Source of the DNA: Candidatus Magasanikiibacteriota bacterium
GTDB lineage: Bacteria; Patescibacteriota; Patescibacteriia; Magasanikbacterales; GWA2-37-8
Assembly: GCA_017991415.1 (NCBI GenBank)
Contig: JAGOQR010000003.1
Coordinates: forward strand, 44,279-108,278
Reading direction: 5' to 3'
Length of the DNA: 64,000 nucleotides
Under the pieces are notes generated by a model that worked only from the letters and a program-made list of their open reading frames with translations, was not told where the DNA came from and did no database searches. Below are positions 33,732 to 63,830 of this stretch, piece by piece. Within the stretch, counting starts at the first letter, position 1. Every line of letters starts with the position of its first letter. Position numbers and translations under genes: made by a program.

Positions 33732-33760
33732 TTGACAAAACACTATTTTTATGCTAATAT
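33732..33760 (+). promoter_or_regulatory. Near-consensus sigma70 promoter driving the GC-rich lipoprotein gene
   Basis: TTGACA (33732-33737), a 17-nt spacer, then TAATAT (33755-33760), all in AT-rich DNA. A leader of about 100 nt contains the SD AAAGGA. Confidence 0.6.
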
Positions 33761-33863
33761 AATGTGTTCTTTTTCAACACTTGATACCCTTATCGACCCC
33801 AACTTTACCGAGGCTAATGCTATCGGTGGGTCTGAGGGGTTTCAAGCCACGAAAGGAATCGAC

Positions 33864-34640
33864 ATGACCCGCATCTCGATCATTCTCGCCGCTGCCTTCG
33901 CCGTCGCCGCCTGCACCGAGACCGAGGTGGTCGTCAACGACCACTACGGCGTCTGCACGGCCGACGAGCAGTGCCCGGGCACCTACGTGTGCCAGGACGG
34001 CATCTGCATCGAGCCGGAGGAGCCGCCACAGTCGGTCGCGGACTGTGCGACCTACGAGTGGGCCGGTCGGGAGACGCCCTGGCACTGCTGGTGCGAGGGC
34101 GACAACTGCATCGGCACCGATGCCGAGCTCCCCTGGGAGTGCCCGCTCGACTTGCTGGACTCCGATCCCAACGACGGCGTCTGCGGTGTGCAGTGCCACG
34201 ACCACTTCTGGCTCGACGCCCAAGCGGTCGGTCTCGACCCCAACACCTCGCCCCCGTCCCTGACCTTCGACGTCGGTAACGGTGTGGTGACATGCACCCA
34301 GTACGTCGACATCTCGCCCTTGCGCTTCGTGCGCAGCCAGACCGAGATCTACCTGGATGCGCCCGACGGCCGTACCGTCCAGATCGACTATCGGATGACG
34401 GCCCCGGCCATCGTCGAGGTGTTCATCCGGTACAACGAGGGTGCCCAGTGGATCAACGGCGGACTTGCCTTCACCTACACCTTCCCGGGCGGCCCCACCA
34501 ACATCGGTGGCGTGCGGTACGGGTTCCGGCCGGAAGAGTCATTCCCTTCGGGGACCACCACCTACTGGAAGCTCGAGGCTCATCGGTGGATCAACAACGA
34601 GCTGTTCGACACCTGGACGGGGAGCATCACGCTCCCCTGA
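33864..34640 (+). CDS. Cysteine-rich secreted lipoprotein of unknown function, encoded in a compositionally foreign (about 65% GC) segment
   Basis: ATG at 33864 preceded by AAAGGA. Lipoprotein signal MTRISIILAAAFAVAAC. At least 12 Cys in the N-terminal half (CTADEQCPGTYVCQDGICIEPEE; WHCWCEGDNCIG). Codons are strongly GC3-biased, unlike all neighbouring genes. The opposite-strand and other-frame ORFs listed in the track here are high-GC artefacts. Confidence 0.7.
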   Translation: MTRISIILAAAFAVAACTETEVVVNDHYGVCTADEQCPGTYVCQDGICIEPEEPPQSVADCATYEWAGRETPWHCWCEGDNCIGTDAELPWECPLDLLDSDPNDGVCGVQCHDHFWLDAQAVGLDPNTSPPSLTFDVGNGVVTCTQYVDISPLRFVRSQTEIYLDAPDGRTVQIDYRMTAPAIVEVFIRYNEGAQWINGGLAFTYTFPGGPTNIGGVRYGFRPEESFPSGTTTYWKLEAHRWINNELFDTWTGSITLP

Positions 34641-34646
34641 ACACTG

Positions 34647-34744
34647 CCTCTGGCTGCGCTCTCACGAGAGAGCGCAGCCCCATCCGAGTTGTTTGCACAA
34701 CAGAATAATTAATTTGTTATGTTGTGCAAACTCGGATGCAGAGG
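34647..34744 (+). repeat. Composite inverted-repeat structure at the 3' end of the GC-rich gene
   Basis: An outer pair cctctg...cagagg encloses a GC hairpin (ggctgcgctctc-acgag-agagcgcagcc, 34652-34679) and a 19-22 bp AT-richer imperfect IR (catccgagttgtttgcacaaca ... tgttgtgcaaactcggatg, 34681-34738). Confidence 0.6.
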
Positions 34745-34757
34745 AAGTATAAATTTA

Positions 34758-35034: not shown

Positions 35035-35475
35035 TTAACTGTTGACAATTGCAGAATCCGGTAATGATGGAAAATCTTTTAATTTTATTGTTACCTCTTT
35101 ATCAAGAAAAGCGCGGGTAAGGCGATGCATGCCATTAAATATTTGTCCATCCACAGTTCTCCATATGGGATTGGATAAATCTGCATGCTGGATTGTTGCT
35201 ACGTGATCGGCGTAGGCTTGATTTTGTTTTGCTGCGTCCCAATCTTTAAGAAGATCGTATGGGCCTAATAAATCCCCGTTTCTATCAGTCCAATAATAAT
35301 TCCCTTCAGATACTGCTTCAGCTAATTCATTCAATGGCACTTCTCGCGTAGGAAGCAGTTCAGCGACGCGCTCTAAAAGTTCAACATTATAAAGCTGGTC
35401 TCCAACAGTGGTTGTTTCAAAGTTATGACCATGCAATCCATCTTGATATCCAGCTGGCGGTTTTCCTTCTAGCAT
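35035..35475 (-). CDS. Hypothetical protein (147 aa) adjacent to tRNA-Ser
   Basis: The ORF-track version (35035-35586) runs through the tRNA-Ser gene. The start is placed at the internal Met (MLEGKPPAGYQDG...). No recognisable motif. Confidence 0.4.
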   Translation of the reverse strand: MLEGKPPAGYQDGLHGHNFETTTVGDQLYNVELLERVAELLPTREVPLNELAEAVSEGNYYWTDRNGDLLGPYDLLKDWDAAKQNQAYADHVATIQHADLSNPIWRTVDGQIFNGMHRLTRAFLDKEVTIKLKDFPSLPDSAIVNS

Positions 35476-35499
35476 AATTATTTGATTTTTTAAAAAATG

Positions 35500-35584
35500 C
35501 GGAGAGGGTGGGATTCGAACCCACGAGGCCTTGCAGCCTACCGCTTTTCGAGAGCGGCACTTTCGACCACTCAGACACCTCTCC
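35500..35584 (-). tRNA. tRNA-Ser (anticodon CGA), type II tRNA with a long variable arm
   Basis: Reverse complement is GGAGAGGTGTCTGAGTGGTCGAAAGTGCCGCTCTCGAAAAGCGGTAGGCTGCAAGGCCTCGTGGGTTCGAATCCCACCCTCTCCG. Anticodon loop CTCGAAA. Long variable arm. Confidence 0.85.
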
Positions 35585-35625
35585 ATTTTAAATTGCTCTT
35601 ATCCTAACACGAATTAGCTGGACCT

Positions 35626-36249
35626 TCAACGATTATCCAAACTAGCCCATAAATATAGCGAAGCGGTCGTGCGATACGGTTGCCAACGAGAAGATAGTTG
35701 TTTTAATTTTTTAGGAGATGGATCCTTACGTAAACCATACAATTTCTTAACTGCATTTCGCAAACCCAAATCACCAAAAGAAAATACATCTGGCCTACCA
35801 AGCGAAAAAATCAAAAACATTTCTGCCGTCCATCGCCCGATTCCTTTTACTTTTACAAGCATCTCAATTATTTCTTCGTCTGTTTTTTTATTTACCTGCC
35901 TAAAATCCAATGCGCCCTCCTCAAACGCAGTGGCAAGATTTTTAATATATGAAGCCTTAGAACCAGACACTCCTACCGATCGAAGCTCCTCATTACTTTT
36001 TGCCAAAACCTGAGCAGGCAAAGGAAATTTACCCTGAGGGAACAAAGCTTTGAATCGTTTTATAATTGTACTAGCTGCCTTGCCTGAGAGCTGTTGGCTT
36101 ATAATAGCGTCGGCCAAAGATTCAAAATAGTTTTTGCTCGAACGCAAAATTGTTGGCTTAGCCAACAAAAATAGTGTGGCAAGTAGCGGATCTGCTTTTT
36201 TTAAAAAAACCATAGCTGGCGACATAGATACTTTTTTCTGTACTGACAT
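35626..36249 (-). CDS. DNA-3-methyladenine glycosylase II-like (HhH-GPD superfamily, AlkA-type)
   Basis: 207 aa with an HhH-GPD motif region (VKVKGIGRWTAEMFLIFSLGRPDVFSFGDLGL). Confidence 0.7.
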   Translation of the reverse strand: MSVQKKVSMSPAMVFLKKADPLLATLFLLAKPTILRSSKNYFESLADAIISQQLSGKAASTIIKRFKALFPQGKFPLPAQVLAKSNEELRSVGVSGSKASYIKNLATAFEEGALDFRQVNKKTDEEIIEMLVKVKGIGRWTAEMFLIFSLGRPDVFSFGDLGLRNAVKKLYGLRKDPSPKKLKQLSSRWQPYRTTASLYLWASLDNR

Positions 36250-36250
36250 A

Positions 36251-37801
36251 TTACAATTCTATACACGGTTTTACTTTATTATTAAACCCTTCAAGCTGCG
36301 CAATTTGATCTACGGTAATATTTTGCAATTTTTTATCTCGCTTATTCTCTGGGTACATTACTTCATAAAAAAGCGGCATCATACTATCTACTCCGTTTTG
36401 CAAAGACATACCCTTGGCTGACTCTACGATTTTGTTCCAGGTGCTATTTGTACCATAGAGCATAAGATCTAAGCCCGTAGCTTGGAATAAGCTACCATTT
36501 TTATCTTGCAAAAACGCAAGCGCGATATCCCCGCCCATAATCTTGGTTTCTATTTGTTTACACATACCTGCTTCCTCGCTTTCTCCTATCTCCTGGAGCA
36601 ACTGCAGATACCCTGCTTTCATAGCAGTTAAGTAACTTGGCTGAGAAAAACCACCTAGACAAGTTACGCCGTAATAAAACGAAATAAGTATAAAGGTAAG
36701 GAGCATAGAGGGGACGAGCTCTCCTGACTGTAATTTTTCACTAATAACCAAAGCTGTTAAGGGCACACAGAAAGTACCGTCCGCATTTATTAGCCCTCCA
36801 TTTTTTTTCCATAATCGCTGCCTATACTTTTCTCCTTTGGGTTTTGCCCAAAACAAAAAAGTTCCAATATCATTTTTTGAAAAAGCGCCAATAATGCCTT
36901 CAAAATATTTTATCAGTAGCTGCTGATATTTGGCATTAAAAATAATTTGATTAACGATTGTATTCTGATTGAGGTGATACTTGATAAGTAAATTACTTGT
37001 AATTGTTTCCTGATCAATGTAGACAAGATTTGGTAATTTTTTGTACGGGGCAAACAACTGTTGCCAAAACCTGAAGTTAGTCTTGGTAATTTGTTCAGAA
37101 TAATTCTTGCTCTCTAACACATCAGACTGACCATAAACTACATCAATTAATCTTGTAATTTTTTCTACTGTCTCATGACGAATGAGACCGTCTAACACTT
37201 TGTGCTTTAGCATTTTTTTAATACGGGTTAAATCTTTTTGCGTATAACCCTCAAGTCCATAGACAGCCCGCTGACTATCTTTGGCTGGGAAAAAAGACAA
37301 ACGATGCAGCTCTTGAGTGTTCCCTATATCACTATGAAAAATGAGTCCACGTGGAAAAGAAGAATTGTTAAGCGAGACATTAGCGCAGGACAAAACAATA
37401 ATATTTTCTAAATTAAAATCTGCTTGGGGTGTGGCAGTAATTAAATTAGCATTTAAAAAAAATGGATGACAAATTGGCCCATGATGATCGACAGTGGAAA
37501 CAAAATAATTTTGCTCTAACTGCCTTTCGACACTGTGCGCAACCTCAACACCAAGCAGCCGCTCTACCTGCTCCACAACAACAGCAACAAATTCTGCCTG
37601 ACGATCTTTTGCAGCAGGGCTCTTCTCAATTTCTTTATACCGCAAGGCATGGTCATACAATGTTTCATTGCCTTTCTTTTCAAGAGTTTCTTGAAGGGCA
37701 GGGGCGGTACGAAGCACTTGGTTTTTAAGTTGCGCAAAATCTAACCCAAGCTGGCTTGAATCAATAAAATTTCTTTCTCGGGCTATATTCATAGAAGACA
37801 A
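36251..37801 (-). CDS. Hypothetical protein (516 aa), likely co-transcribed with the upstream ATP-grasp gene
   Basis: Long ORF without recognisable motifs (no P-loop, no Mur-ligase GxxGKT). Ends 2 bp before alkA-like and starts 16 bp after the ATP-grasp gene. Confidence 0.4.
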   Translation of the reverse strand: MSSMNIARERNFIDSSQLGLDFAQLKNQVLRTAPALQETLEKKGNETLYDHALRYKEIEKSPAAKDRQAEFVAVVVEQVERLLGVEVAHSVERQLEQNYFVSTVDHHGPICHPFFLNANLITATPQADFNLENIIVLSCANVSLNNSSFPRGLIFHSDIGNTQELHRLSFFPAKDSQRAVYGLEGYTQKDLTRIKKMLKHKVLDGLIRHETVEKITRLIDVVYGQSDVLESKNYSEQITKTNFRFWQQLFAPYKKLPNLVYIDQETITSNLLIKYHLNQNTIVNQIIFNAKYQQLLIKYFEGIIGAFSKNDIGTFLFWAKPKGEKYRQRLWKKNGGLINADGTFCVPLTALVISEKLQSGELVPSMLLTFILISFYYGVTCLGGFSQPSYLTAMKAGYLQLLQEIGESEEAGMCKQIETKIMGGDIALAFLQDKNGSLFQATGLDLMLYGTNSTWNKIVESAKGMSLQNGVDSMMPLFYEVMYPENKRDKKLQNITVDQIAQLEGFNNKVKPCIEL

Positions 37802-37816
37802 AACTTGGTCGACTTA

Positions 37817-39007
37817 TTAAAACGCATCAATATACTGCTCTACATAATCCCACAAAGGTTGGGCCACATTATTTGTCGCCCCTTCAACAGGATCATAGTG
37901 CAAATTAATAAACGGTAAACCATTACACTCTATAATGCCCCATTTTTGCTCATCTGGATTACGAGAAATATCGTTAATAATAAAATCAAAACCAATTACA
38001 GGGTCGGCAACTACTTCCGCTGCTTTTTCTAAAATTTTTATAGTTTCTGGATGGGTAATACTCGTTACTTCCGCTGCACAGCCCCCATAGGAAACGCCGA
38101 TTTTTTCTAGCAGATCAATAGTCTGATTGTTCGGCAGAACGCTCTCCAAGTTTAATCCAAGTCTAGCTAGAAAATTTTTATGCTCTTCTGTGACCACTAC
38201 ATCTTTAACACCTGTTGGCTTGTTGGAATTTTTTATTTCAATTAAACGAGCAACGGAACTATTACCATCACCTGTAATTCGTGGCGGATCCCCGCGTAAT
38301 ACACCCGCTACTTTTCCGTTTATGACGGTACCGCGATAGACACTACCCACCAAATGTTCTTCTAAAATTACCCAGTAGCAGAGCTGTTTGGCTGACTCAA
38401 ATGCTTTTTTTAAATCTTCTTCAGTATATATGTGCGTGGTAGTATGTCGCCCTCGTGAACCAAGACGCGGCTTTATAATGACTGGCTTTTCTAATTCTTT
38501 AAACTTGTTGAGCAGTGGTGAAAAACGAGAAAATACTCCGCCTCGAGCTACAGGCAAACCCTCATCTTGTAAAGTTTTTTTAAAAAGCGCCTTATCATCC
38601 AACCACCATTCGGAGTTTTTTGGGGTACGAAGCGGCCTTGGCAACCCGTTAAAATAAATCTTTTTACCATGTACAGTCGCCCCATACAAGTCGACTACTT
38701 TTCCAAATGCATAGAAATTATGCATAGGTATACCACGACGCAGAGCCTCTTGCCAGAGCACCTTGCCGCGCTGATTTACTGTTTTGCTTGGATCATTATT
38801 AACCTTAAGCACACCCACGGCGCTATACAACCACACAAAAAATTTAAGTAGCGGATTGGTAATAGCCGCTGCCAATCGAGATAAAAAACTTTTTGACAAC
38901 CAAACATGCATTGGCGAACTAAAAACCGAGCTCGTCTGACTAAACCACGAAAGAGCGTGTGATACTTGATTATTGCCACAGGCTAAACAGCGTTGTTTTT
39001 CAGACAT
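37817..39007 (-). CDS. ATP-grasp ligase resembling the N-terminal ATP-grasp half of cyanophycin synthetase (CphA), without a Mur-ligase domain
   Basis: 396 aa. Segments VIIKPRLGSRGRHTT, VINGKVAGVLRGDPPRITGDGNSSVARLIEIKN and GVSYGGCAAEVTSITHPETIKILEKAAEVVADPVIGFDFIINDISRNPDEQKWGIIECNGLPF are collinear with CphA ATP-grasp regions (VVKP..G..G.GV, VVNGKLVAAA.R.P..V.GDG..TI.ELI and NLSTGG.A.DVTD..HP.N...A..AA.AIGLDIAGID...DIS.P). Confidence 0.55.
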   Translation of the reverse strand: MSEKQRCLACGNNQVSHALSWFSQTSSVFSSPMHVWLSKSFLSRLAAAITNPLLKFFVWLYSAVGVLKVNNDPSKTVNQRGKVLWQEALRRGIPMHNFYAFGKVVDLYGATVHGKKIYFNGLPRPLRTPKNSEWWLDDKALFKKTLQDEGLPVARGGVFSRFSPLLNKFKELEKPVIIKPRLGSRGRHTTTHIYTEEDLKKAFESAKQLCYWVILEEHLVGSVYRGTVINGKVAGVLRGDPPRITGDGNSSVARLIEIKNSNKPTGVKDVVVTEEHKNFLARLGLNLESVLPNNQTIDLLEKIGVSYGGCAAEVTSITHPETIKILEKAAEVVADPVIGFDFIINDISRNPDEQKWGIIECNGLPFINLHYDPVEGATNNVAQPLWDYVEQYIDAF

Positions 39008-39040
39008 ACTAGAGAGTTAATAACCTTCATATAATATACG

Positions 39041-39077
39041 AAAATGAGCCTGTTGCAAACAGGCTCATTTCTTTTTT
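39041..39077. terminator. Hairpin terminator between VIT1 and the ATP-grasp gene
   Basis: aatgagcctgtt-gcaa-acaggctcatt followed by tcttttttg. Confidence 0.5.
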
Positions 39078-39090
39078 GCAGGTTAGCCTT

Positions 39091-39879
39091 TTAGGCCAAG
39101 CCACCAAGCAGTATCCCAACACCATAAGCAGAAGCTGCTGCAAAACCACCAAGCAACAACATCTCGAGACCAGCTTGATACCAAGGCTGACGAGTAAAGT
39201 AAATTTTAAGAGTACCAAGGATAAATAACGTAATACCCGTTAGAACGCAGGCCATCACAAAAGTATGAGCAGCAAAAAAAGGAACAAAGCGAGCTGCTAC
39301 ATAAATTAAAACGGGGATGGATCCAAAAAAAATGAAAGAACCAAATGTAACAGCTGCATTTTTTATTGGAGACTCCTTACTTTCCACCATACCCAACTCT
39401 TCTACCATCATAATATCTACCCACGATTTTTCATATTTCGACAAAGCTTGAACCGCGATTTTTGCATCTTCTTCGGCAATACCTTTTTCCATATACAGCT
39501 CCACCATTTCTTGCTTTTCACCTTCTGGGTAATTACGAACTTCCCATGTCTCTCGCACTCGTTCAGCAGCCATATAATCATTTTCTGCTTTGGTACTTAA
39601 ATAATCACCAAAGGCCATCGATATGCCATCGGCAATCAAATTGGCTACACCCAAAATTAAAACGACCGTAGAAGTTAAGCTTGCTCCAGCTACTCCAGCC
39701 ACCACGGCAAATGTAGTTATAATTCCATCCAAGCCGCCATAAACAAAGCTTTTAATATATTGCCCTCCTCCAGAAAAATGATTCTCAGGCGCTCGGCCAC
39801 CTTGATGAGCTTTTTTACTCGCCTCAGCATCATTATTACGAAAAGCATCTCGTGCCTGATCCAAATTTCGAGTAATCAT
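39091..39879 (-). CDS. VIT1/CCC1 family iron/manganese transporter
   Basis: 262 aa with a VIT1 signature region (GGLDGIITTFAVVAGVAGASL...LGVANLIADGISMAFGDYLS) and a C-terminal TM bundle. Confidence 0.75.
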   Translation of the reverse strand: MITRNLDQARDAFRNNDAEASKKAHQGGRAPENHFSGGGQYIKSFVYGGLDGIITTFAVVAGVAGASLTSTVVLILGVANLIADGISMAFGDYLSTKAENDYMAAERVRETWEVRNYPEGEKQEMVELYMEKGIAEEDAKIAVQALSKYEKSWVDIMMVEELGMVESKESPIKNAAVTFGSFIFFGSIPVLIYVAARFVPFFAAHTFVMACVLTGITLFILGTLKIYFTRQPWYQAGLEMLLLGGFAAASAYGVGILLGGLA

Positions 39880-63230: not shown

Positions 63231-63293
63231 CATCCTCCACCGCACTGTTGGGGTTGGAGGTTGATGCGTTGTTGGGCGCGGGCCGACGCGGCG

Positions 63294-63692
63294 CTACTTG
63301 ACGGTGAAGGTGACCCTCGACCAGTCGATCTCGACCGGTCGTGCGACGTAGCTGAAGTCGCACTGGCCGACGTGCCCGTTCTTGTCGATGAACTCGCTGA
63401 GCGTCACCGGCTTGAGCTGGTAGGCCAACGCGGTGAACTTGGGAGCCGCCTTGGCGCAGTTGTCGTAGGTCAGACCGGAGGCGCTGGTGTCTCGAGCGCG
63501 GACGATGATATCGACCATCGCCGACATGATGCGCTCCTCGCAACTGGCGTTCTTGCACTGCTTGGGCGCCGACTTGTCGGCCTTGGACGACGCCTGCGTC
63601 TTGGCACTGACGACAGTCTCCGCTCCGGCGACCGAAGCGATGGTGCCGAACAGGAGGGTGAAGAACATGCAGAGCTTGAGAGTGGTATTCAC
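63294..63692 (-). CDS. Small secreted protein of unknown function, encoded in a compositionally foreign (about 60-65% GC) segment
   Basis: 132 aa with a GTG start at 63690-63692 preceded by the SD AGGAGA. Signal peptide LKLCMFFTLLFGTIASVAGAE. Several Cys (CKNASCEE; DNCAKAAP; VGQCDF). Strong GC3 bias. The overlapping + strand ORFs in the track are high-GC artefacts. Confidence 0.65.
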   Translation of the reverse strand: MNTTLKLCMFFTLLFGTIASVAGAETVVSAKTQASSKADKSAPKQCKNASCEERIMSAMVDIIVRARDTSASGLTYDNCAKAAPKFTALAYQLKPVTLSEFIDKNGHVGQCDFSYVARPVEIDWSRVTFTVK

Positions 63693-63830
63693 GACAGTCT
63701 CCTACGTGGGGGTTTTGGAAATTGAACCTTTGTACAAGCCAGCAGGCTTTACCAAGGTAAAAGAAAGCCTAGTTTTGGATCTCTTTTCCCCTGGCAAAGC
63801 CTGGTTTGTTATTTAAAAGAGCAACAGACA

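Follow-up and report, generated by a model that had tools for sequence, protein, structure and literature searches.

Background

Cyanophycin synthetase (CphA1) has an N-terminal primer-anchoring domain (residues 1-160), a middle ATP-grasp domain, G, and a Mur-ligase-like M domain that adds arginine. In the G domain of CphA, residues R323, N394 and R458 recognise aspartate and His267 is catalytic (PMC9427784). GshF couples a first module that is a glutamate-cysteine ligase to a C-terminal ATP-grasp module, while BshC adds cysteine in bacillithiol synthesis. Class I aminoacyl-tRNA synthetase (aaRS) paralogues such as MshC have been recruited as amide ligases, sometimes sharing an operon with ATP-grasp ligases (PMC2922099). 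The subject here is a pair of adjacent genes on a 64-kb stretch of contig JAGOQR010000003.1 (64,000 nucleotides, called the window throughout), one encoding a 396-aa ATP-grasp protein (the ligase) and the other a 516-aa protein (the partner). The source genome is a Candidatus Magasanikbacteria genome from the Candidate Phyla Radiation (CPR, or Patescibacteria), and the two proteins are 100% identical to entries KBC69_04155 and KBC69_04150, respectively, of a metagenome-assembled genome (MAG). CPR bacteria are ultra-small and mostly uncultured, with very small genomes and little biosynthetic capacity.

We propose, with a probability of about 0.55, that the pair is a conserved, CPR-specific, two-enzyme module for amide-bond formation whose members act together in one cytoplasmic pathway. 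An earlier note on this DNA had described the two minus-strand open reading frames (ORFs) as a stand-alone CphA-like ligase with a co-transcribed companion; both ORFs exist where it placed them. Searches of the literature for the pair, the partner family, BshC-like proteins of Patescibacteria and stand-alone CphA G-domain enzymes in the CPR returned nothing relevant.

Recurrent pairing and fusion of the two families

That fusions arose repeatedly, and that the genes lie adjacent in two orders across deeply divergent lineages, is strong evidence from gene sequences and arrangement that the ligase and the partner work together. A sample of 80 metagenome loci taken from the ligase side (64 clusters at 90% identity) has the partner family directly beside the ligase or fused to it in 29. 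Flanks are too short to tell in 28 loci, and another 23 have enough flanking DNA with no partner present, which makes the proportion 29 of 52 among informative loci. The partner gene is immediately upstream of the ligase gene in 19 loci, often with an overlap of 4-11 nt (e.g. L096); five loci encode a single fused ORF (e.g. L141), three show the ligase-first order of the window, one has the two genes divergent, and one is an operon that runs partner, racemase, ligase (L143). Ligases joined to a partner in one or other of the two gene orders are only 44-72% identical to the ligase of the window. Further instances come from other Magasanikbacteria and from Falkowbacteria, where the two genes bear consecutive locus tags (HZC26_00970/00975 and HY933_01025/01020). 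The earlier note had asked for conservation of the neighbourhood across CPR genomes, and the relation it suspected between the two proteins is borne out by this recurrence.

The fusion proteins P0341, P0351 and P0371 (845-860 aa) consist of a partner-family domain followed by a full-length ligase homologue. A further search added P0390, P0391 and P0392, and all six measure 818-862 aa. Their ligase halves are 48-50% identical to the ligase of the window over residues 1-387, including the N-terminal CxxCGN..H motif discussed below. P0341 is encoded on two independent assemblies. In a structure model of a fusion both halves are confident (pLDDT 90.7), and the ligase half matches TeCphA1, GshF and CphA2.

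A rough neighbour-joining tree of the ligases, midpoint-rooted, has linked loci in most clades and fusions arising at least three times. The gene order of the window forms a derived subclade within the partner-then-ligase arrangement, and the unlinked loci form a few coherent clades. Sampled from the partner side, 5 of 79 GTDB genome loci carry the ligase directly upstream, in the order of the window, and these five are the loci closest to the window's partner (49-53% identity).

A ligase related to the G domain of CphA and to GshF

Residues 136-388 of the ligase match positions 211-469 (of 862) of the NCBIfam cyanophycin synthetase model TIGR02068, with E = 5.8e-55 and a score of 186.7 bits that falls far short of the curated cut-off of 850 bits. 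Residues 138-388 match chain residues 219-478 of CphA1 in PDB 7lg5 (E = 5e-35). The collinearity with the ATP-grasp part of CphA reported in the earlier note is therefore real, but the part matched is the middle G domain and not the N-terminal half of the enzyme. The ligase stops after the G domain and, as that note recognised, lacks the M domain, for which the partner offers no substitute: it has no Mur-ligase Pfam match, and Mur ligases are not among its fold matches, which are BshC and LysRS. The N domain is missing too: neither the NCBIfam nor the PDB comparison aligns any of the ligase with it. Because both the N and the M domain are absent, the ligase is not a cyanophycin synthetase.

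Other relatives rank as follows. The C-terminal module of GshF scores E = 4e-35 and 121.3 bits in NCBIfam (NF002688, cut-off 425 bits) and E = 1e-20 in the PDB comparison, and no GshA-like glutamate-cysteine ligase domain was found in the ligase or the partner with Pfam or NCBIfam. N-acetylglutaminylglutamine synthetase follows at E = 7e-30 (NCBIfam), and well behind come Ddl (E = 9e-8, 31 bits) and RimK (E = 4e-4, 19.7 bits). Structure gives the same ranking: the model of a 50%-identical ligase homologue superposes on the TeCphA1 G domain with an rmsd of 3.4 A over 328 columns (Foldseek E = 1e-22), the next matches are GshF (E = 3e-22) and CphA2, with Ddl, LysX and RimK far behind at about 1e-9. 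Kinship with CphA rather than with RimK or Ddl, on which the earlier note had staked its idea, thus holds both in bits and in Foldseek E-values. The fold, two ATP-binding lysines and acidic Mg ligands place the protein in the ATP-grasp superfamily, where profiles and model together identify it as a predicted stand-alone enzyme of the CphA-G/GshF type.

Residues were mapped to SuCphA1 through the 7lg5 alignment, conservation was counted over 22 members of the ligase family, and residue roles were taken from the catalytic and binding residues of TeCphA1 (PMC9427784). Seven catalytic residues, K139, K179, E216, R225, D341, E360 and N362, correspond to CphA1 K220, K261, E300, R309, D431, E450 and N452 and are invariant, which answers the earlier note's call for a check of the ATP-grasp catalytic residues. 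The predicted roles are ATP-binding lysines (K139 and K179), hinge glutamate (E216), acyl-phosphate arginine (R225) and Mg ligands (D341, E360 and N362). The ligase also keeps the G-omega insertion and TGDG motif. With the ATP, Mg and acyl-phosphate residues intact, the ligase should be active, forming an acyl-phosphate on a carboxylate, and should take the incoming amino acid in a pocket of a different kind. CphA His267, Arg323, Asn394, Gly456 and Arg458 become R185, G239, G304, F366 and N368 in the ligase; the first four replacements are invariant in the family and N368 occurs in 21 of 22 members. As the aspartate-recognising residues and His267 are replaced, nothing points to a cyanophycin-like poly-Asp product, and the analogy with cyanophycin drawn at the outset fails on this point as well as on the missing N and M domains.

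The first 70 residues of the ligase comprise a motif, C7-x2-C10-G-N-N-x3-H17, and, after it, variable amphipathic helices. CphA and GshF lack the motif, which is possibly a metal site. A membrane anchor in this region was considered and rejected: the best 19-residue Kyte-Doolittle means are 0.9-1.96, with charged residues in the segments, and there is no consistent transmembrane helix.

The ligase family has 1,128 matches at E up to 0.001, the top 120 being full length and 49-100% identical, and all named matches are from the CPR. Several stand-alone members of about 394 aa bear the JGI name "cyanophycin synthetase" and others "D-alanine-D-alanine ligase-like"; both names misfit the domain and residue tests, and the first is a likely annotation error. 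No PADLOC or PHROGs model matches the ligase or the partner, and readings of the pair as a defence system or a phage element were dropped for that reason.

The partner family and its fold

The earlier note found no recognisable motifs in the 516-aa ORF, and at the level of sequence this is correct. Searches of Pfam (to E = 1), NCBIfam and PDB sequences, with the partner and 21 relatives singly and with a 119-sequence profile, gave no match. A word search finds 306 homologues, with about 40% identity between CPR classes, and an exhaustive profile search finds a family of 1,247 clusters at 50% identity. All named matches are again CPR (Magasanik-, Peregrini-/Peri-, Gracili-, Kerfeld- and Falkowbacteria, and Parcubacteria). 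The polar residues conserved across the family are T103, H106, S143, N146, R151, Q237, N242, E265, H276, W318, R327, Q387 and D445.

The AlphaFold2 model built with 119 sequences is confident (pLDDT 94.3, pTM 0.93), and its only significant Foldseek match in the PDB is BshC (4wbd; E = 1.2e-5, probability 1.00, TM-score 0.41 over 400 columns). Class I LysRS (1irx) follows at E = 0.019, and TyrRS is weaker. A search of the viral structures in BFVD gave nothing significant, and the top non-significant matches were again class I synthetases. The motif STxDHHGP occupies the position of the class I synthetase HIGH signature; T103 and H106 in it are conserved family-wide, H106 as the sole invariant histidine. 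The canonical HIGH is absent, and no KMSKS-like motif was found among the conserved positions of the family.

Membership in the BshC family was rejected: no Pfam match appears in 22 partner-family members at E up to 1, and hhalign of the partner profile, run against the 4wbd sequence and an alignment of six BshC sequences from plasmid and chromid records, gives a local probability of 0.2 and nothing useful globally. It pairs a single stretch, LGGFSQPSYL, with IAGPGEINYW of BshC, at a level short of significance. Membership in the class I aaRS family was likewise rejected, the HIGH and KMSKS signatures being lacking. A zinc site for cysteine recognition was also considered; C139 and C381 are conserved in the long subfamily only and not family-wide. 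According to the model, then, the partner has a BshC-like or class I aaRS-like fold and is filed in neither family. The earlier proposal of a novel second ligase fits such a fold. The pairing is not universal, with 5 of 79 partner loci carrying a ligase and 23 informative ligase loci without a partner.

Neighbouring genes in other genomes

Neighbour clustering over the 79 genome and 80 metagenome loci has a racemase and one RimK-like ligase as its sole recurring extra genes. The racemase, of the cofactor-independent, DapF-fold type of CntK and HisR, is encoded immediately downstream of the partner family in 10 of 79 genome loci, is fused to it in P0060, and stands between partner and ligase in L143. 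Both catalytic cysteine motifs are present, and the matches to CntK (E = 7e-26 and 5e-25) reach 88-91 bits. The equivalog cut-offs are 300-400 bits, and with scores this far below them the substrate of the racemase cannot be assigned. The RimK-like ATP-grasp protein, different from the ligase discussed here, is fused to the partner family in P0285 and adjacent to it in L025. It would appear that the partner family can team up with ATP-grasp ligases of more than one kind, and it is repeatedly tied to enzymes acting on free amino acids. In L088 a gene of the Orn/DAP/Arg decarboxylase type adjoins the P0285 fusion gene on the opposite strand.

The remaining neighbours reflect lineage synteny (IF-2, PabB/PabC, NDK, ribonucleotide reductase/NrdR and HtpX). 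In a Kaiserbacteria locus with a ligase and no partner (L084), a divergent gene for a GNAT acetyltransferase sits just upstream of the ligase; N-acetylglutaminylglutamine synthetase joins a GNAT domain to an ATP-grasp domain that the ligase resembles, which makes this neighbour worth recording. Immediately upstream of the module in L096, and of an unlinked ligase in L085, there is a gene for a membrane protein of about 500 aa with an NAD-binding domain of ferredoxin-reductase type. This may be synteny or a functional link. Several MAGs with these CPR-specific genes (L006, L007, L009, L030 and others) are titled "uncultured Gammaproteobacteria bacterium", which looks like mislabelled taxonomy.

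The locus and its transcription signals

In the window the partner gene sits downstream of the ligase gene (Table 1). The public gene model for the partner (P0001, KBC69_04150, 100% identical) takes the ATG at 37792 as its start codon, for a protein of 513 aa. No terminator-like site was seen in the 15-nt spacer between the two genes, and co-transcription, as asserted in the earlier note, is plausible from the sequence, although this is short of proof. A terminator-like hairpin and a promoter-like site both lie between VIT1 and the ligase gene, and the pair therefore probably starts its own transcript; promoter-like consensus matches are no commoner here than in shuffled sequence. The HhH-GPD base-excision glycosylase gene that follows the partner is, judging by its spacing, probably co-transcribed with the pair. 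In relatives it lies kilobases away from the partner-family gene, the adjacency is not conserved, and it is for this reason probably a passenger rather than a member of the module.

Table 1. Coordinates of features in the window and in related loci. Entries with a locus handle use the positions of that locus; all others use those of the window.
Feature	Location	Strand	Remarks
ATP-grasp ligase gene	37817..39007	minus	ORF, 396 aa, ATG start
Partner gene	36251..37801	minus	ORF, 516 aa from first TTG
Ligase-partner spacer	37802..37816	minus	15 nt; 24 nt counted to ATG 37792
Ligase N-terminal signature	38957..38989	minus	CLACGNNQVSH; C7, C10, G11, N13, H17 invariant
Ligase phosphate loop	38444..38473	minus	KPRLGSRGRH, with K179 (ATP alpha-phosphate lysine); R185 at CphA His267 position
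Partner motif at HIGH position	37475..37498	minus	STVDHHGP; directly after first strand of Rossmann-like sheet
Partner motif paired with BshC	36629..36658	minus	LGGFSQPSYL; G383, G384, Q387, Y390, L391 at least 90% family-wide
Promoter-like site	39031..39058	minus	TTGCAA-16-TATTAT, just upstream of ligase start; consensus match only
Terminator-like hairpin	39041..39071	minus	14-bp stem and T run; closes upstream VIT1 transcription unit
VIT1 gene	39091..39879		Upstream of ligase gene
HhH-GPD glycosylase gene	35626..36249	minus	Begins 1 nt past partner stop codon (TAA-t-ATG)
Racemase operon	L143 5316..8853		Partner, racemase, ligase
Other racemase loci	L027-L029, L036, L046, L047, L053-L055, L080		Also protein P0060
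P0285 fusion gene	L088 3311..6139		Partner family and RimK-like ATP-grasp
Partner and RimK-like genes	L025 10001..12779		Adjacent
GNAT acetyltransferase gene	L084 5276..5842		Divergent from ligase
Membrane protein gene	L096 7085..8620		Upstream of module
Membrane protein gene	L085 4469..5947		Upstream of unlinked ligase
High-GC island	33,800-34,750		About 0.9 kb, 58-68% GC
ORF in high-GC island	33732..34640	plus	302 aa
183-aa ORF	35035..35586	minus	Overlaps tRNA-Ser(cga) at its 5' end
tRNA-Ser(cga)	35499..35584	minus	
High-GC islet	63,250-63,700		62-64% GC
ORF in high-GC islet	63261..63725	plus	

Proposed pathway and alternatives

In the pathway we envisage, the ligase would use ATP to turn a free carboxylate, most likely that of an amino acid or short peptide, into an acyl-phosphate, which an amino group would then attack to give a peptide bond. 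The conserved catalytic residues suggest this step, with the CphA G domain and the ATP-grasp module of GshF as model chemistry. The site that would receive the incoming amino acid is altered, and the residue added is therefore probably not aspartate. The partner, probably in a complex with the ligase, would carry out the other amino-acid-handling step, either forming the first amide bond or activating or presenting the substrate, as its fold and gene context suggest; the order of the steps and the product are likewise what we infer. In some lineages the racemase would supply a D-amino acid: since it lies between, beside or fused to genes of the module there, one of the building blocks may be in the D form. 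The product may be a short peptide or pseudopeptide, serving as a small metabolite or a cell-envelope precursor. It would not be cyanophycin, since the aspartate-binding residues, the N domain and the M domain are all missing.

Several observations weigh against this proposal. Only the five partner loci noted above carry the ligase, and Peregrini-, Gracili- and Kerfeldbacteria loci have no ligase within 10 kb; conversely, whole ligase clades (e.g. Kaiserbacteria) have no partner within 10 kb, and either gene occurs alone in large clades. The pTM of the fusion model is only 0.65, and a fixed interface between the halves is not demonstrated by it. The neighbour clustering turned up no conserved carrier, transporter, or substrate or precursor-peptide gene in the 79 genome and 80 metagenome loci. 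The likeness of the partner to BshC and class I aaRS is a matter of fold only, as the TM-score of 0.41 and hhalign probability of 0.2 indicate. With HIGH and KMSKS lacking and only H106 of the DHHGP motif invariant family-wide, ATP use by the partner is only putative. Finally, the reaction of BshC itself has never been reconstituted (PMC5790435), and it is on this enzyme that the analogy rests.

Among other explanations, cell-wall chemistry is an unlikely one. Here the module would extend a peptidoglycan precursor by a (D-)amino acid or a short peptide, giving a stem variant or a cross-bridge, with the racemase as source of the D-amino acid, much as enterococci pair an aspartate racemase with an ATP-grasp D-aspartate ligase. 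The adjacent or fused racemase suits this, as do the wide distribution of the partner family, its location among housekeeping genes and the partner-family loci that adjoin PBP2, MurB or MurD, and ATP-grasp ligases for D-amino-acid cross-links are an established theme (PMC2922099). Shared synteny would seem to explain these peptidoglycan neighbours, however, as they are confined to a few related lineages; conserved genes beside the pair include none of the Mur, Fem or lipid II-related kind, a membrane segment is not consistently present in the ligase or the partner, and the ligase is nearest to CphA and GshF, not to Ddl. That nearness to GshF, the fused architecture that mirrors it, and BshC as the nearest solved fold of the partner would instead suit a CPR-specific low-molecular-weight thiol or similar protective metabolite, made by a BshC-like cysteine-adding step and a GshF-type ATP-grasp step. 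This seems quite improbable for a partner with no sequence-level relation to BshC and no family-wide Cys/His cluster able to bind a cysteine thiol through zinc, at loci where no BshA- or BshB-like, thiol-transferase or reductase gene is conserved nearby.

Just as little can be expected of a split cyanophycin-like polymerase, in which the ligase would extend a poly-amino-acid backbone and the partner would replace the M domain and attach the side-chain residues. CphA is indeed the best match of the ligase in sequence and structure, the G-omega insertion and TGDG motif are retained, and a ligase-like partner fold that is sometimes fused recalls the multidomain CphA; yet R323, N394, R458 and His267 are all replaced, the primer-anchoring N domain is absent, the profile score is 186.7 bits against a cut-off of 850, and no cyanophycinase or Mur-type domain lies nearby. 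Modification of a macromolecule, with an aaRS-like partner binding tRNA or protein and the ligase adding amino acids as RimK, LysX and ArgX do, is very unlikely. It finds some encouragement in class I LysRS and TyrRS among the fold matches of the partner, in LysX, ArgX and RimK as weaker structural relatives of the ligase, and in the location of the genes among housekeeping genes such as IF-2 and IleRS, but no carrier-protein or target gene is conserved nearby, the partner lacks HIGH and KMSKS, and the association with a racemase argues for free amino acids as substrates. Scarcely credible is the view that ligase and partner are unrelated neighbours in a compact genome. Long one-strand gene arrays are usual in CPR genomes, the glycosylase gene follows at an equally short distance (1 nt), and most partner-family genome loci have no ligase; this view is nevertheless contradicted by the independent full-length fusions, by two gene orders across ligases 44-72% identical to that of the window, and by the existence of a three-gene operon.

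The two-enzyme amide-bond-forming module can also be read more broadly and far more tentatively, as a hitherto unrecognised system, widespread in CPR bacteria, in which a BshC-fold enzyme is physically coupled to a CphA-G/GshF-type ligase and an optional racemase to make a lineage-specific D-amino-acid peptide (a protective metabolite or thiol, or a cell-wall element); we consider this doubtful at present. In that case BshC-fold enzymes would be seen, from the natural fusions, to work with a carboxylate-activating partner, which would be a concrete lead on the failure to reconstitute the BshC reaction. As the module is kept across many lineages with small genomes and has been fused repeatedly, it likely makes something that CPR bacteria need. 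Its study could bring to light a peptide metabolite or cell-wall component not seen before, and may inform BshC-type chemistry. The nameless partner family, with no Pfam or NCBIfam model, gains a first testable functional context from its links to ligase and racemase, and the single fused protein of 860 aa is a defined target for expression and assay.

Other features of the window

Two short regions of the window stand out by composition in a genome of about 38% GC (Table 1). The larger lies about 750 nt from tRNA-Ser(cga), and its ORF has a Cys-rich N-terminal part and no Pfam match above cut-off; foreign DNA inserted here, or a chimeric assembly, could account for this island. Nucleotide and translated comparison of the two regions found no similarity between them. 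The first 30 or so residues of the 183-aa ORF are translated tRNA, and the real gene must therefore start later.

Comparison with known systems

The G domain of CphA1 (7lg5, 7wae) and the ligase share the ATP-grasp fold with the G-omega insertion, and a 50%-identical ligase homologue superposes on it at 25-26% identity with an rmsd of 3.0-3.4 A over about 327 columns. The ATP, Mg and acyl-phosphate residues are common to both, as would be the implied chemistry of carboxylate activation and amino-acid addition. Unlike CphA1, the ligase has no N or M domain, has five residues replaced (those at His267, R323, N394, G456 and R458), carries its own N-terminal CxxCGNN..H motif and helices, has an unrelated BshC-like protein as neighbour or fusion partner, and shows no sign of a polymer product.

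GshF (also GshAB; 3ln6, 3ln7) is the closest parallel in layout: a first ligase is followed by a CphA-G-type ATP-grasp module, a close relative of the ligase, that extends a C-terminal carboxylate, and the natural fusions match this layout. The first module of GshF is, in contrast, a glutamate-cysteine ligase, where here there is an unrelated Rossmann-type fold, and the ligase scores 121 bits against the 425-bit cut-off.

BshC (4wbd) is the best solved-structure match of the partner. The two are of similar size (about 510-540 aa), and both are Rossmann-type, related to class I synthetases, and devoid of canonical HIGH and KMSKS. They differ in that no sequence or profile similarity accompanies the TM-score of 0.41, and no conserved neighbour resembles BshA or BshB in the loci covered (up to 20 kb each, and the one 64-kb window). 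The resemblance to MshC is one of concept only, in that a synthetase-like Rossmann enzyme makes amide bonds for purposes other than translation; MshC, with its canonical motifs, is clearly a paralogue of CysRS, whereas the partner family has no sequence relation to any synthetase.

The optional racemase, which is not found in the window, scores to the CntK and HisR histidine racemases (DapF fold) and keeps both of their catalytic cysteine motifs. It stands apart from them in its 88-91 bits, far under the cut-offs, and in the lack of CntL or CntM opine-metallophore genes alongside. Set against these systems, the ligase represents a subfamily new to an established enzyme class, and the partner family, itself uncharacterised, has a fold of a type already known; together they add a further variant to the non-ribosomal amino-acid ligase systems.

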